Assembly: GCA_945878025.1 (NCBI GenBank) | Contig: CAMDXM010000001.1 | Span: 2,109-66,108 of the forward strand | DNA length: 64,000 bases | Reading direction: 5' to 3' | Source of the DNA: Pseudorhodoplanes sinuspersici | GTDB lineage: Bacteria > Pseudomonadota > Alphaproteobacteria > Rhizobiales > Xanthobacteraceae | Part shown: positions 41,067 to 47,059 of the stretch, in pieces | Layout: every line of letters starts with the position of its first letter | Position numbering within the stretch: position 1 is the stretch's first letter | Translations under genes and position numbers: made by a program | Notes under the pieces: generated by a model | What the model was told of the DNA's origin: nothing | What the model saw: the letters and a program-made list of their open reading frames with translations, nothing else | Databases searched by the model: none

Positions 41067-41603
41067 TTATTGCTCGAGGACGAGCTTGCCGCCGGCATAT
41101 TCGAAGCGGCGCAGCTTGGTCAGGAACGACAATCCGAGCAGGTTCTCGGAGAGCGCGGAGTCGGGCACGACCAGCGCCCGCACGTCGCGGACGACAAGCC
41201 CGCCGACTTCCACCATCGACAGGTTGGTGGCCGCGGCGCGCACATTGCCGTTGGCGGTGCGGACGCTGACGTTGAATTCGCTTGCGGAGGGATGGATGCC
41301 GAGCCGCTTCGCATCGCTGGCCGTCAGCGCGATGGTGGAGGCGCCGGTATCGACCATGAAGCCGATGCGCCGTCCATCGACGCGGGCATCGACCTGAAAA
41401 TGGCCGCGCCCGTCGCGCTGGATCGTGACGGTCCGATAATTGGAAGACGGCGCCGGAGCGGCAGGCGCCGCGACGGCGGACGAGGCGATTTCGGTCGCGG
41501 GAGCGCGCCCGGCCTTGTCGGCAATGCGCGTGAGCAAACCGGCAAAGGCGAGAGCGAGGGCCGCGAAAACTGCAAAATACCGCATCGGAAAAATCCGCCG
41601 CAA
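41067..41603 (-). CDS. Clan AA (retropepsin-like) aspartic protease, TIGR02281-like
   Basis: GHF.V.A.V.G, FMVDTGAS, LLGLSFL; N-terminal membrane anchor. Confidence 0.9.
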   Translation of the reverse strand: MRRIFPMRYFAVFAALALAFAGLLTRIADKAGRAPATEIASSAVAAPAAPAPSSNYRTVTIQRDGRGHFQVDARVDGRRIGFMVDTGASTIALTASDAKRLGIHPSASEFNVSVRTANGNVRAAATNLSMVEVGGLVVRDVRALVVPDSALSENLLGLSFLTKLRRFEYAGGKLVLEQ

Positions 41604-41740
41604 ACGTGACGATCCGCCCCGATCACATCATTCTTCCGCAAAGGCCGCATTAACACGCTGGGCGCGACATCGGCCTTTCGCCGGAGACGGTATCTCCACA
41701 ATCACCGGGATCGTTAAAATTTGAACGATTCTTTCCGGGT

Positions 41741-42574
41741 TCAGCGGATCATCCGGCTTTCGACCACCCAAATCTCGAAGAATTTGGTCAGTACGCGGGC
41801 CAATGAACTCGCGGCCGCGGCAGCGGCGCGCATCCGGCTCTCCTGCGTCAAGGCTTCCATCCGCAGGCCTGCGGCAAGGTTGGTGACCATGCCGAGCGCC
41901 AGAACGCGAAGGCCGAAGCGCCGCGCAAGGATGGTCTCCGGCACGATCGCCATGCCGACCACATGCGCGCCGAGCGCCTGCGCGGCGCGGATCTCGGCGG
42001 CGGTTTCGAAACTCGGTCCCGGCAGCCACATATAGACGGCTTCATGAATCTTCCGGCCGAGCTGGCCGCAGGCGATCGCGAACCGCTCCTGCAAATGCCG
42101 GTCATAAGCGCCGGCCATGTCGACGAAGCGGTCGCGCCCGCGTTCCCCGATCAGCGGATTCAATCCGGTGAGGTTGATGTGATCGGTGATGGTCACAAGC
42201 GTGCCCGGATTGATATCGGTGCGCACCGAGCCGGCGGCGCTGGTCAGCACCACGCATTTTGCGCCGAGCAGCGACAGCATTTCGAGCGGCACGCGCATGG
42301 CGTTGATGTCGCCCGCGTCATTGTAGTTGGCGCGGCCGCGAAAAATCGCGATCCGCGCCGTGCCGAGCAGGCCGATCACCAACACCGGCTGCTCTTCGCT
42401 CGCGGGCCGGGCAAAGCCCGGCAACTGGTCGTAAGGAATGACGATAGCCTGGCCGACCTGGTCGGCGATGCCCGCAAGCCCGGTGCCGAGAACGAGGCCG
42501 ACATCGATCCGCGCGTCGCCGATTTGCGAACGCACCAATTCGGCGCATTTTTCCGCGTCGCTTTGCACGCCCAA
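41741..42574 (-). CDS. Purine nucleoside phosphorylase I homologue (PNP/XapA type) with altered phosphate site
   Basis: VLGTGL, LT.AAGS, DHINL.G.NPL, GPSFET.AE, VGM..VPE, TN. Confidence 0.85.
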   Translation of the reverse strand: MGVQSDAEKCAELVRSQIGDARIDVGLVLGTGLAGIADQVGQAIVIPYDQLPGFARPASEEQPVLVIGLLGTARIAIFRGRANYNDAGDINAMRVPLEMLSLLGAKCVVLTSAAGSVRTDINPGTLVTITDHINLTGLNPLIGERGRDRFVDMAGAYDRHLQERFAIACGQLGRKIHEAVYMWLPGPSFETAAEIRAAQALGAHVVGMAIVPETILARRFGLRVLALGMVTNLAAGLRMEALTQESRMRAAAAAASSLARVLTKFFEIWVVESRMIR

Positions 42575-42644
42575 TGTCCCCTGACAGGCGAATCACCGAC
42601 GGATCATAGCCGCAGAGAGTCCTTCTCGCGACAGACGCTTTAGT

Positions 42645-43862
42645 TCAGTGCGACGCGTTCGCGGATGGCTCGCCCACCAGGTCGCGCCATCGTTGCGGCT
42701 GCGATGTGAGCCAGACCAGCCAGACATAAATCAGCGTCACGACGAAAGGCTTGGTCACGCGATCGACCGGAAAGCTGACGGAGAAACCCAGCACCAGCAC
42801 GGCGGCGATCAGCAGCCAGCCGCGGATATCCTGCGCATTGCGTCCGAACAGGGCGAAGGCAAGCGCGGTCAGGCCCGGGGTCAGGACAAAGAACGAGAGA
42901 TATTCGTTGCGCGGGCCGAACAGCGTGATGTAGCAGCCGCTCAGGATCAGGATCGCGAGCGGAAAAATCGTCCGGCCCTCGATCTTCGAAATCCGCCAGG
43001 CCAGCGCGAGCGTGCCGAACGCGGCGGCGAAGCGGATCGCGGTCGCGACATTCGGCGGCACGACGATGCGGAAGGTGTCGAGCATGGTCTGGAAATCGGC
43101 CTGATAGGGCCAGTCCGTCGGCATGACGTGCGCCATGAAGGAAAGCTTGAGCATCCAGGCTCTGTATTGCTCGGCCATGTAGGACCATTCGACCACCGCG
43201 AATGGCAAAAGAAATCCGGCGATCAACGCGCCGATCAAAGGCAAGCGCATGCGCGGCTGCACCGCCCCGCACAGAAGCAGCATGACGATGGCGAGCGGCT
43301 TCATCACCGCGGCAAGGAAAATCCAGAGCGACGCGAGATGCCAGCGGCCGCGCATCATCGCCGCCGCGGCGAGGATCATGCCGGAGGTCATCAGGATTTG
43401 CGCCTGGATGTATTTGAAATTGAACCATGCGGCGGGAATGTTAATGAGCAGCAAGATACCCGCAGCCGTCACCGCGCTGACCGAGCGCTTCCGCGGCAGC
43501 AGCGCATCGAGCAGTTTCACGCAGGCGAAGGTGAATACGCCCATCGCCAGCGTGATCATGATCCAGCCGGCGACGACCGGATCGAGCCGCAAGACCGGGA
43601 TGTAAATCAGCAGCGACGACGGCCAGTAATTGAACCCGTCAAGCGTGGTCGCGTCATAGAGCGGCTGCCGGGACCAGAGCCTGTTCGCAAAATCGAGATA
43701 GACGCTAAAGGTGGAACCGAAACGCTTCGGCCCGGTCTGCACCAGGATGGAGATGCAGAACACGATCCACGCCGCCCAGCCGACCCACGGATTCTTCGCG
43801 AACCACACCGCGATTTCGGAGGATCGCTTCGCAAAGGATGCGGCGACAGGATTATTCGGCAT
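42645..43862 (-). CDS. Polytopic membrane glycosyltransferase, GT87/DUF2029-like
   Basis: About 10 TM helices, PLYD...GFNY.P motif, K-P in TM, typical GT-C topology; start uncertain (43862/43940/43958). Confidence 0.7.
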   Translation of the reverse strand: MPNNPVAASFAKRSSEIAVWFAKNPWVGWAAWIVFCISILVQTGPKRFGSTFSVYLDFANRLWSRQPLYDATTLDGFNYWPSSLLIYIPVLRLDPVVAGWIMITLAMGVFTFACVKLLDALLPRKRSVSAVTAAGILLLINIPAAWFNFKYIQAQILMTSGMILAAAAMMRGRWHLASLWIFLAAVMKPLAIVMLLLCGAVQPRMRLPLIGALIAGFLLPFAVVEWSYMAEQYRAWMLKLSFMAHVMPTDWPYQADFQTMLDTFRIVVPPNVATAIRFAAAFGTLALAWRISKIEGRTIFPLAILILSGCYITLFGPRNEYLSFFVLTPGLTALAFALFGRNAQDIRGWLLIAAVLVLGFSVSFPVDRVTKPFVVTLIYVWLVWLTSQPQRWRDLVGEPSANASH

Positions 43863-43984
43863 TGGGGCCCCCGGTTCCGGCGCGCACCATAATCGGATTT
43901 TCCGGCTGGCGAAACGGCTCAATGAAATGCCGCGTTTCATGCCGATCCAAATTTTCAAACAGCCAAGTCTGCGACCGGCAAGCC

Positions 43985-44578: not shown

Positions 44579-47059
44579 CTATTGCCCGCGTGGCTTGACG
44601 CGCCGCGTCGGCATGGCCGAGGCGGGATCGTCCGGCCAGGGATGGCGCGGATAACGGCCCTTCATTTCCGATTTCACCGCCTGCCAGGAGCCGCCCCAGA
44701 AGCCCGGCAGATCGCGCGTCACCTGCACCGGCCGTTGCGCGGGCGACAGCAATTCGATCACCAGCGGCACGCGCCCGCCGGCGATGGACGGATGATGGCC
44801 GAGGCCAAACAATTCCTGCACACGAATGGAAATCGTCGGCCCCGCTTCGGCCGCGTAGTCGATCGCAGCCTGCGTACCCGTCGGCGCCTGGAAATGGGAG
44901 GGGGCTTCCTCGTCGAGACGGCGGCGCAGATTCCACGGCAACAGATTTGTGACCGCATTCCAGAGATCGTCCGCCGCGATGCCGGACAAAGCGGTCTTTC
45001 CATCGCATAAAGGCGTCAGCCATTCCTCCGGCCGTTCCGCAAGCGCGGCATCCGAAAGATCCGGCCATTCCTCGCCCTCGGCATTGCGCAAAAACATTTC
45101 ACGTTCGCGCCATTGCGACAGCGCCTTGGTCCAGGGCAAACGCGAAAGACCGAGCTTCACCACGCCCTCAGCCAGAATGCGCGCGGTTGACTCGTCCGGC
45201 TTCACCGCCACGATCTGCTCGGAGAGCGCGATCGCGTCGAGCCTGCGCGCCTTGCGCGCGCGCAACGACGCGCTCGCCGGATCGAAATTGACCTCGTCGC
45301 GGCTTTCGATCTCGTTCGCAAAGCGCTGCTCGATCTCGCTCACGGCAATCGGCGCGGCCAACAGAATGCGGCTTTGCGCGGCGGTGCCGGTCAGTTCGGC
45401 GACAACGATGAAGGGTTCGCGTGCGAGCGCCAAGGCCGGATCGATCTGCGCGCCGCGGCCGTTGGCGAGCTGAAATCCACCCGTCCCGCCGCCGCGATTG
45501 CGCGCAACGCGGTCGGGATAGGCGAGCGCCAATATGGCGCCGACCGACGGTCCGTCAGCGCTGTCTTTCTTGCCGCCGGCCTCTTCTGCTTCTTGCGCCC
45601 AGCGTTTCGCCATGCGTCGCGCGTCTTCGGCGCGGCCGGAGCGCTCGCGGCGGAATTGATCGAGGCGATGGGTCAAATCCACGTCGGTGCCGCCCAGGCC
45701 CCGTTCGCTCAGGATCGCCGCCATGTCGGCGGCGATGTTTCCCGCGCCCTCGCGTCCGGCATCCACGATCATACGGGCGAGGCGCGGTTGCAGCGGCAGC
45801 GCGCGCAGCTTGCGGCCCTCCTCGGTGATACGGCCATCGGCGTCGAGCGCGCTCAACGTTCGCAGCAGCGATTTCGCCTCGGTGAATGCCCCCTGTGGCG
45901 GGGGATCGAGAAACGAGAGCTTGGCCGGATCGTTCACGCCCCATTGCGCCAGATCGAGCGCGAAGGACGAAAGGTCGGCGGCGAGGATTTCCGGGCGCGC
46001 GAAGGGCTCAAGGCTCGCTGTTTCCGGCTCGTCCCAAAGCCGATAGCAAAAGCCAGGCTCGGTGCGACCCGCGCGTCCACGCCGCTGGTCGGCGGAGGCG
46101 CGCGAAACGCGCACGGTTTCAAGCCGCGTCAGCCCGACATCCGGCTCATAACGCGGCACGCGCGCGAGCCCGCAATCGATCACAATACGAACGCCCTCGA
46201 TGGTGAGCGAGGTTTCCGCGATGGAGGTTGCCAGCACGATCTTGCGTGTGCCCGGCCGCGCGGGCGAAATGGCGCGATCCTGCACGCTGGCGTCGAGCGC
46301 GCCGTAGAGCGAAACGATATCGACGGATTTGTCCTCGATGCGCTGTCTCAGCATTGTCTCGGTTCGCCGGATTTCGCCCGCGCCCGGAAGGAACACCAGC
46401 AGCGATCCGCCTTGCGCACGCAGCGCGCGCACAACGGCATCCGCGACCTGACGTTCTATTTGCGCGCGCGGATCGCGGCCGAGATAACTGGTTTCAACCG
46501 GAAAGGCGCGGCCTTCGCTTTCGATCACCGGAGCACCGCCCAGGAGCTTCGCCACGCGCGCGCCGTCGAGCGTCGCCGACATGACCAGAATTTTCAGATC
46601 CTCGCGCAAGCCCTGCTGCGCGTCGCGGGCAAGCGCCAGGCCGAGATCGGCATCGAGCGAGCGTTCATGGAATTCATCGAACAGCACGGCAGCAATGCCG
46701 GACAATTCCGGATCGCCGAGAATGAGGCGGGTGAAAATGCCTTCGGTCACGACTTCGATGCGGGTCGCACGCGATACCTTGGAACCAAAGCGCACACGCA
46801 AGCCCACGGTCTCGCCGACCTTCTCGCCTAAGGTCGCAGCCATGCGTTCGGCGGCGGCGCGCGCTGCGAGCCGGCGTGGCTCCAGCACGATGATTTTTTT
46901 GCCTTTGGTCCAAGTTTCTTGCGCAAGCACCAGCGGCACGCGCGTGGTCTTGCCCGCGCCCGGCGGCGCCACCAGCACGGCGGCATTCTGCTTGGCGAGC
47001 GCGCCGGTCAGTCGCGGCAGAACGGCGTCGATCGGAAGGGATGTGTCGAAGGTCGGCAT
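44579..47059 (-). CDS. hrpB: ATP-dependent RNA helicase HrpB
   Basis: APPGAGKTT, EPRRLAA, DEFHERS, MSATL, ATSIAETSLTI, QR.GRAGR, RYPRHPWP. Confidence 0.97.
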   Translation of the reverse strand: MPTFDTSLPIDAVLPRLTGALAKQNAAVLVAPPGAGKTTRVPLVLAQETWTKGKKIIVLEPRRLAARAAAERMAATLGEKVGETVGLRVRFGSKVSRATRIEVVTEGIFTRLILGDPELSGIAAVLFDEFHERSLDADLGLALARDAQQGLREDLKILVMSATLDGARVAKLLGGAPVIESEGRAFPVETSYLGRDPRAQIERQVADAVVRALRAQGGSLLVFLPGAGEIRRTETMLRQRIEDKSVDIVSLYGALDASVQDRAISPARPGTRKIVLATSIAETSLTIEGVRIVIDCGLARVPRYEPDVGLTRLETVRVSRASADQRRGRAGRTEPGFCYRLWDEPETASLEPFARPEILAADLSSFALDLAQWGVNDPAKLSFLDPPPQGAFTEAKSLLRTLSALDADGRITEEGRKLRALPLQPRLARMIVDAGREGAGNIAADMAAILSERGLGGTDVDLTHRLDQFRRERSGRAEDARRMAKRWAQEAEEAGGKKDSADGPSVGAILALAYPDRVARNRGGGTGGFQLANGRGAQIDPALALAREPFIVVAELTGTAAQSRILLAAPIAVSEIEQRFANEIESRDEVNFDPASASLRARKARRLDAIALSEQIVAVKPDESTARILAEGVVKLGLSRLPWTKALSQWREREMFLRNAEGEEWPDLSDAALAERPEEWLTPLCDGKTALSGIAADDLWNAVTNLLPWNLRRRLDEEAPSHFQAPTGTQAAIDYAAEAGPTISIRVQELFGLGHHPSIAGGRVPLVIELLSPAQRPVQVTRDLPGFWGGSWQAVKSEMKGRYPRHPWPDDPASAMPTRRVKPRGQ

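Follow-up and report, generated by a model that had tools for sequence, protein, structure and literature searches.

A trimeric-type purine nucleoside phosphorylase homologue of Pseudorhodoplanes with a remodelled phosphate and ribose site

The window analysed here is a 64,000-nucleotide stretch of Pseudorhodoplanes sinuspersici (contig CAMDXM010000001.1, assembly GCA_945878025.1), and on its minus strand (41741..42568) lies a gene for a homologue of trimeric purine nucleoside phosphorylase (PNP), the protein P0001, in which the purine pocket is complete and much of the phosphate and ribose side has been rewritten. Alignments show that the clade to which P0001 belongs has replaced or released the residues corresponding to the phosphate ligands (S33, H64, H86, T114, N115 and S220 in human numbering) and the ribose-hydroxyl ligands (Y88, Y192 and H257), and that it has fixed new arginines at what would be the 5′ end of the ribosyl pocket (the H257 and V260 positions) and in the gate loop. 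The variant probably still recognizes purines but carries out a different chemistry. Our preferred reading, to which we assign a probability of about 0.4, is that of a changed enzyme that would cleave 6-oxopurine N-ribosides without bound phosphate, perhaps with a 5′-anionic substrate.

Active site of the window protein

Residues were mapped through HMMER alignments to two PNPs of known structure (4uc0 and 8swu) and through MAFFT alignments. We use human PNP numbering, which we take to be anchored by motif identity (GSGLG, GH, GRxHxYE, TNAAG, GPSFET, GMSTVPE, TN and HEE). For the roles of individual residues we rely on the phosphate, ribose and base sites listed for Kluyveromyces lactis PNP (PMC5074518), and on the active-site list of calf PNP with its E89–H86–phosphate triad (PMC9916683).

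The purine pocket of P0001 is complete, with F200, E201, M219, T242 and N243 all present. F200 and E201 lie in GPSFET (residues 184–189; 42002..42019, minus strand as for all coordinates of this gene), E201 being retained in 67/67 clade members, and T229–N230 (41879..41884) correspond to T242–N243, the pair that confers 6-oxopurine specificity (PMC5074518). M219 belongs to GMAIVPE (residues 205–211; 41936..41956), in which the two following positions carry S220→A and T221→I. F148 (42125..42127) is the equivalent of F159, the residue lent to the pocket by the neighbouring subunit (PMC9916683), and is kept in 62/67 of the clade.

Within the phosphate set, R84, T114 and A116 are unchanged, position 33 is Thr, and H64, H86, N115 and S220 have become Gln, Asn, Ser and Ala, respectively; among the ribose-hydroxyl contacts Y192 is kept, with Y88→N and H257→Q. 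P0001 is without H64, H86, Y88, N115, S220, T221 and H257. The segment GRANYND (residues 78–84; 42317..42337) retains R84 and carries H86→N, Y88→N and E89→D, and TSAAGS (residues 109–114; 42227..42244) carries N115→S with the A116–A117–G118 backbone segment kept. In the H64 loop (ASEEQP, with E58–E59–Q60 at 42389..42397) Glu-Gln stands for G63–H64; the His is lost, at a position that is unconstrained in the clade. QESR (residues 242–245; 41834..41845) gives H257→Q (TQES) and an Arg at the V260/T260 position, and the gate loop gains R236 (41861..41863) in the motif ‘GLR’.

A sequence-only reading of this gene had described a PNP homologue with a dismantled phosphate and ribose side and a preserved base pocket, and the HMMER and MAFFT alignments bear this out: every motif quoted (LGTG, ASEEQP, GRANYND, GPSFET, GMAI, TN and TQES) is present and maps as claimed on 4uc0, 8swu and in MAFFT, and E201, N243 and M219 are indeed kept. 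It went too far at the phosphate ligand S33, whose equivalent is T29 of the LGTG motif (42482..42484). The substitution is real, but Thr is normal there in 18/69 canonical PNPs, so S33→T is no loss in itself; across the clade the position is G, A, V, L or T.

Losses and gained arginines across the clade

The substitutions are conserved across an orthologue clade, the remodelled pattern being carried by at least 67 sequence clusters from Pseudorhodoplanes and uncultured relatives. In a list of the 120 best homologues it extends through P0001–P0063 (to ~60% identity), and canonical forms appear only lower down. We compared 67 clade members with 69 diverse canonical PNPs, 24 from the same lineage and 45 distant. 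H86 is His in 69/69 canonical sequences and Asn in 67/67 of the clade; Y88 is Tyr in 69/69 and Asn in 59/67; N115, likewise invariant in the 69, is Gly or Ser in the clade, and the canonical T221 is Ile or Leu. H64, T114, Y192, S220 and H257, conserved in canonical enzymes, are variable (A, T, S or G at the S220 position), the canonical Ser or Thr at 33 is mostly G, A, V or L, and the A116–A117–G118 segment is partly variable. G32, R84, E89 (as Glu or Asp), F159, F200, E201, M219, T242 and N243, also conserved in canonical enzymes, stay 91–100% conserved, with Glu in 50 and Asp in 17 of the 67 at the E89 position. When only positions with at least 90% conservation among canonical PNPs are considered, 8/12 phosphate or ribose ligands have changed, as against 0/8 base-pocket positions and 3/41 others, and the pattern of losses is therefore far from chance (Fisher p = 2e-5; p = 0.005 when the four group-defining positions are omitted).

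The equivalent of human V260 (Val284 in PMC5074518) forms part of the lining of the ribose site. Canonical PNPs have T, V or I there; in the clade it is Arg in 54 and Gln in 13 of 67 members, and all 13 with Gln have Arg at the H257 position. An Arg at one or other of the two positions is thus found in 67/67 clade members, versus 1/24 same-lineage and 0/45 distant canonical PNPs. For the gate-loop Arg (R236) the corresponding counts are 65/67, 1/24 and 0/45. H257→R also occurs in most of the sister degenerate subclades and in P0064, P0065 and P0068; because these last relatives otherwise keep H86, Y88 and S220, H257R may have been an early step.

Family assignment and fold

Profile searches place P0001 within the family and its inosine/guanosine/xanthosine phosphorylase subfamily: it scores 131 bits against Pfam PF01048 (cut-off 25), 252 bits against NCBIfam NF006054, ‘purine-nucleoside phosphorylase’ (cut-off 218), and 225 bits against the subfamily model TIGR01697 (cut-off 197). 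The equivalog level (PUNP, PNPH or XAPA) is not reached, with scores of 247 for TIGR01698 (cut-off 303), 185 for TIGR01700 (293) and 158 for TIGR01699 (371). MTAP/MTIP models stay below cut-off (TIGR01694, 90 versus 275; NF006599, 69 versus 223), and the NCBIfam profile search gave no match to AMP nucleosidase or MTAN models.

The closest solved structure is the Agrobacterium vitis PNP 4uc0 (E 6e-58). An AlphaFold2 model built from a 72-sequence alignment (predicted local distance difference test score, pLDDT, 89.6; predicted template modelling score, pTM, 0.90) was compared by Foldseek with 8swu, 4uc0, 1yqq and human PNP, giving template modelling (TM) scores of 0.83–0.91 and root mean square deviations (rmsd) of 1.8–2.2 Å; on this model, P0001 adopts the α/β fold of the trimeric-type PNPs. 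Trimer-interface features are kept (F148, equivalent to F159, and an N-P-L motif), and a homotrimer may be formed.

Public pipelines label the clade proteins ‘purine-nucleoside phosphorylase’, and it could be that P0001 is still a weak classical inosine/guanosine phosphorylase, which would hold phosphate through R84, T33, N86 and the A116 backbone amide, with His→Asn and His→Gln serving as hydrogen-bond mimics. The replacements in P0001 are conservative (S→T, H→N, H→Q and E→D), Thr33 is within the canonical range noted above, and the NF006054 and TIGR01697 cut-offs are passed. In published mutagenesis of human PNP, single substitutions at these positions reportedly lower activity rather than abolish it. 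Here, however, at least seven ligands have changed together, and a phosphate site common to the clade is hard to build when most of the clade carries G, A, V or L at 33 and Ala at 220, and H86 is found in none. The changed ligands are invariant in the 69 canonical PNPs, showing the strong selection that phosphorolysis imposes, and the TIGR01698, TIGR01700 and TIGR01699 equivalog cut-offs are all missed. We consider continued phosphorolysis unlikely.

Orthology and history of the locus

Every family genome that carries a PNP, canonical or variant, has it in the same gene order: hrpB, PNP, a TIGR02281 protease, and then PMM/PGM, pheA and kdsB. For L101 the KdsB values came from faulty extraction and were disregarded. 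Because the flanking genes are the same in canonical carriers (L102 and L103) and variant carriers (L081, L082, L100, L101 and L104–L108), the variant gene is the positional orthologue of the canonical trimeric PNP of its bacterial family, not a paralogue. The canonical orthologues at the same locus, L102 (G642), L103 (G536) and L095, with the proteins P0070, P0074 and P0103, are 54–59% identical to the variant, fall in the same well-supported lineage (SH-aLRT 100, see below) and, unlike it, have the full S-H-R-H-Y-E-N-S-T-H set and T at position 260.

In a tree of 88 sequences with support from the Shimodaira–Hasegawa-like approximate likelihood ratio test (SH-aLRT), the variant clade (18 rows, SH-aLRT 100) is nested in a 50-row lineage (SH-aLRT 100, stem length 0.39) whose basal members are fully canonical and which also holds other degenerate subclades, of R-L-H-E, N-H, H-H and N-A type. 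Sister subclades at the same locus (L104, L107, L108, L105 and L106, from G569, G718, G490, G445 and G452) show other site variants, with the patterns R-L-H-E, R-N-H-E, R-P-Y-E, and R-H-Y-E with C115/F116. Added to the canonical and N-N forms, they give a graded series of orthologues that is useful for ordering the changes. Parsimony requires at least five changes of the degenerate state on a quick tree, but when a single degenerate clade is put to the approximately unbiased (AU) test, the result is borderline (p = 0.048, for a group defined after viewing the tree). We claim two origins of the degenerate state only, one in the window lineage and one in that of the homologues L037 and L041 described below.

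The gene is present in ~6/25 sampled genomes of the genus, the window’s own included, and in 17/401 genomes of the family, spread over 8/62 genera. Across the order (Hyphomicrobiales) a PNP is carried by 182/401 genomes, and all those inspected are canonical. No second trimeric PNP was found in the window genome (91% complete) or in the other variant carriers searched, two of which are complete (G517 and G555). The other PF01048 genes of the window genome are an MTAP beside apt (L001, 531 bits) and a distant DeoD/UP-like protein. This third PF01048 protein of the genome (L003:1438-2376, minus strand, contig C136) scores 94 bits and matches DeoD, uridine phosphorylase and AMP nucleosidase models only weakly (40 bits or less); its gene is nucleoside phosphorylase/nucleosidase-like and could bear on purine salvage.

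These searches also dispose of a suggestion in the sequence-only reading, that P0001 is a partner subunit of a canonical PNP; such a subunit, whether regulatory or structural, would join it in mixed trimers. The preserved interface (F159 and N-P-L) would suit such a role, but the second, canonical PNP that it presupposes was looked for and found in no carrier searched, and the gene is itself the orthologue of a canonical PNP. We reject the partner-subunit reading as scarcely credible.

Selection on the variant gene

The ratio of non-synonymous to synonymous substitution (dN/dS) was calculated by the Nei–Gojobori method for close pairs only, dS being near saturation (~1) in distant pairs. Close variant pairs give 0.129 (window versus L083), 0.162, 0.185 and 0.089; in the same pairs, the values for neighbouring hrpB are 0.098 and 0.123. 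There are no internal stops in 17 family copies. Purifying selection acts on the variant gene, and with dN/dS of 0.09–0.19 and no internal stops it is not an incipient pseudogene, as had been argued from the intact open reading frame (ORF) alone and as now holds against the closest orthologue (dN/dS 0.13). The ratio of PNP dN to hrpB dN is 1.3–1.7 in variant pairs versus 1.15 in the sole canonical pair, so that any acceleration of PNP in variant pairs is mild at most.

A gene en route to loss, in which relaxed selection erodes the active site and the intact ORF is transient, would account for its dispensability (most congeners have lost it by a clean deletion, and ~96% of the family genomes searched are without it) and for the somewhat raised dN relative to hrpB. 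That scenario is largely refuted by the dN/dS values, and we regard it as very improbable. The variant state is found throughout lineages that share only 50–70% identity, and no copy contains a frameshift or stop; new residues have become fixed (N86 in 67/67, R236 in 65/67, and Arg at 257 or 260 in 67/67); and 38/41 of the other canonical-invariant positions are retained together with 8/8 base-pocket positions.

Proposed function

In the changed enzyme that we favour, a hypoxanthine/guanine-type purine riboside would be bound and its N-glycosidic bond activated through N243 and E201. A tightly bound phosphate would no longer be the nucleophile; water is the likeliest substitute, which would make the protein a nucleosidase, and it could be held by a cluster of R84, E89, N86 and N88. 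Because arginines are newly fixed at the 5′ end of the ribose pocket, a substrate with an anionic 5′ group, for example, IMP, GMP or XMP (the 5′-monophosphates of inosine, guanosine and xanthosine), is suggested. Ribose 5-phosphate would then be the sugar released, and no phosphopentomutase would be needed. In its most specific form the proposal is that the clade is a natural purine nucleotide N-ribohydrolase (IMP, GMP or XMP plus water giving base and ribose 5-phosphate) that evolved stepwise from a phosphorylase, first through an Arg at the 5′-hydroxyl position (H257R) and afterwards by loss of the phosphate-nucleophile site; stated so narrowly it is a long shot.

The superfamily offers a parallel. 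MTAN is the hydrolytic counterpart of MTAP, and in it a Glu/Arg pair holds water where MTAP holds phosphate. By analogy, the MTAP/MTAN pair and AMP nucleosidase may serve as precedents within the fold for water replacing phosphate and for 5′-phosphorylated substrates, with the leaving-group machinery kept. They are members of other subfamilies, whose base pockets differ, and have no specific sequence relationship to the variant. Metabolic context adds little: deoB is present in the canonical carrier G642 and absent from the canonical G536 and from three variant carriers (two complete genomes), and an IU-type nucleoside hydrolase is found only in G536 and in none of the three variant carriers tested. 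The absence of both from variant carriers is weakly compatible with a changed enzyme.

Several observations weigh against the changed enzyme. Loss of the Y88, H257 and Y192 contacts is awkward for stabilizing a ribooxocarbenium transition state, and would be just as consistent with a protein that binds the base only. Within the clade there is variation at positions 33, 64, 220 and 257, and the 86/88 pair differs between sister subclades (L-H, N-H, H-H and N-A), variability that resembles relaxed constraint more than one purpose-built water site. The gene is dispensable, most of the genus having deleted it, cleanly and with no remnant in the congeners that do not carry it. The deoB argument is weak: deoB is also missing from the canonical G536, and ribose 1-phosphate might in principle be isomerized by the PMM/PGM-family enzyme encoded nearby.

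The main rival is a pseudoenzyme, a non-catalytic purine or nucleotide binder in which fold, trimer and pocket would be preserved in order to bind, buffer or sense ligands of the hypoxanthine/guanine type. Such a protein would have both its phosphate site and its ribose-hydroxyl contacts dismantled and several lost-ligand positions free to vary once chemistry was no longer selected, with base-pocket residues 91–100% conserved, as here; and dead PNP-fold domains do exist, as domains 2 and 3 of tandem PNP proteins. Yet R84 and E89 (Glu or Asp) are strictly conserved and 67/67 members have N86, none of which base-only binding needs, and we find neither a conserved partner gene nor a fused output domain or regulator, the flanks being equally present without the PNP. 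The fixed arginines hint at a particular new feature of the ligand, though one that a binder could also use. On balance, we hold a pure binder to be possible but doubtful, and the changed enzyme remains our preferred reading.

Comparison with canonical and other degenerate PNPs

The variant shares the fold of the canonical trimeric PNPs (PunA/XapA; 4uc0, Clostridium perfringens 8swu, Escherichia coli XapA 1yqq and human PNP), with 32–40% structure-aligned identity, and has the same purine pocket, R84, E89 position, F159 and N-P-L interface. They differ in having H64, H86, Y88, N115, S220, T221 and H257, all missing from the variant, which has an Arg at the V260 position and another in the gate loop.

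Degenerate PNP homologues recur elsewhere, and this clade is a new variant rather than a new kind. About 10/127 of the nearest full-length 50%-cluster representatives are degenerate. Six proteins of 814–889 amino acids (P0134, P0152, P0161, P0169, P0227 and P0267) consist of three tandem PNP-fold stretches: the canonical site is complete in domain 1, and nearly all catalytic residues are missing from domains 2 and 3. Like the variant, these dead domains have lost phosphate and ribose ligands and are nonetheless maintained; unlike it, they are fused to a live domain and have lost the base pocket, whereas the variant stands alone, has no live partner and keeps its pocket. Independently degenerate PNPs were also seen at L037:7001-7708, L039:839-1546 and L041:7001-7795 (an uncultured alphaproteobacterium and metagenome-assembled genomes (MAGs) of Methylocystis and Rhizobium sp.), with the patterns H86→T, M219→W and N243→D, or H86→Q, Y88→S and N243→H. 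These alter the base pocket as well, unlike the window protein. In the open-access literature we found no characterized natural trimeric PNP without a phosphate site.

The gene and its surroundings

The ORF on the minus strand (41741..42574) is intact. It can begin at TTG 42574 or GTG 42568, and we prefer the latter because a Shine–Dalgarno sequence, AGGGGA (42578..42583, minus strand; read from the sequence), lies 9 nucleotides upstream of it and only 3 from the TTG; the resulting coding sequence (41741..42568; 275 codons plus stop) encodes P0001, to which the profile matches and the AlphaFold2 and Foldseek results apply, and is the same as the public gene call.

The conserved flanks are present whether or not the PNP is. 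Upstream is the HrpB helicase (44579..47059, upstream on the minus strand), and the downstream neighbour is the TIGR02281 clan AA aspartic protease (41067..41603, minus strand). A terminator-like hairpin followed by a T-run (41595-41612, minus strand) overlaps the annotated TTG start (41603) of the protease ORF and may be the terminator of the PNP transcript. In most genomes, homology of relatives to the protease begins only at residue 57, and for that reason its true start may lie downstream of TTG 41603.

Between hrpB and the PNP gene lies a gene for a 437-residue multi-pass membrane protein (42645-43958, minus strand) whose match to GT87 (PF09594) is weak. Within the genus this gene is a variable insertion: the window, G016, G011 and G007 have it, and G517, G555, G003, G713, G024 and G017 do not. 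A link between it and the PNP was considered and rejected, as it is missing from most carriers and occurs without the PNP in G011 and G007. PADLOC gave no match that would indicate a defence system, such as one with an anti-phage PNP-like nucleosidase effector, and the surroundings are no defence island: they consist of housekeeping genes, whose conservation does not depend on the PNP gene.

Implications

Trimeric PNP is a textbook system of transition-state enzymology, and a natural clade that is without most of the phosphate and ribose ligands, keeps the pocket, has acquired arginines at the 5′ end and is under purifying selection shows what the fold is capable of minus its nucleophile site. 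Canonical, intermediate and fully remodelled orthologues stand at one locus in related genera, a series in which the functional change of a phosphorylase can be traced. Should the nucleotide N-ribohydrolase reading be true, it would be a new activity for the subfamily and would provide a candidate gene for inosinate-nucleosidase-type activities. For these soil bacteria, the label ‘purine-nucleoside phosphorylase’ probably overstates the function of the clade and would mislead metabolic reconstructions.

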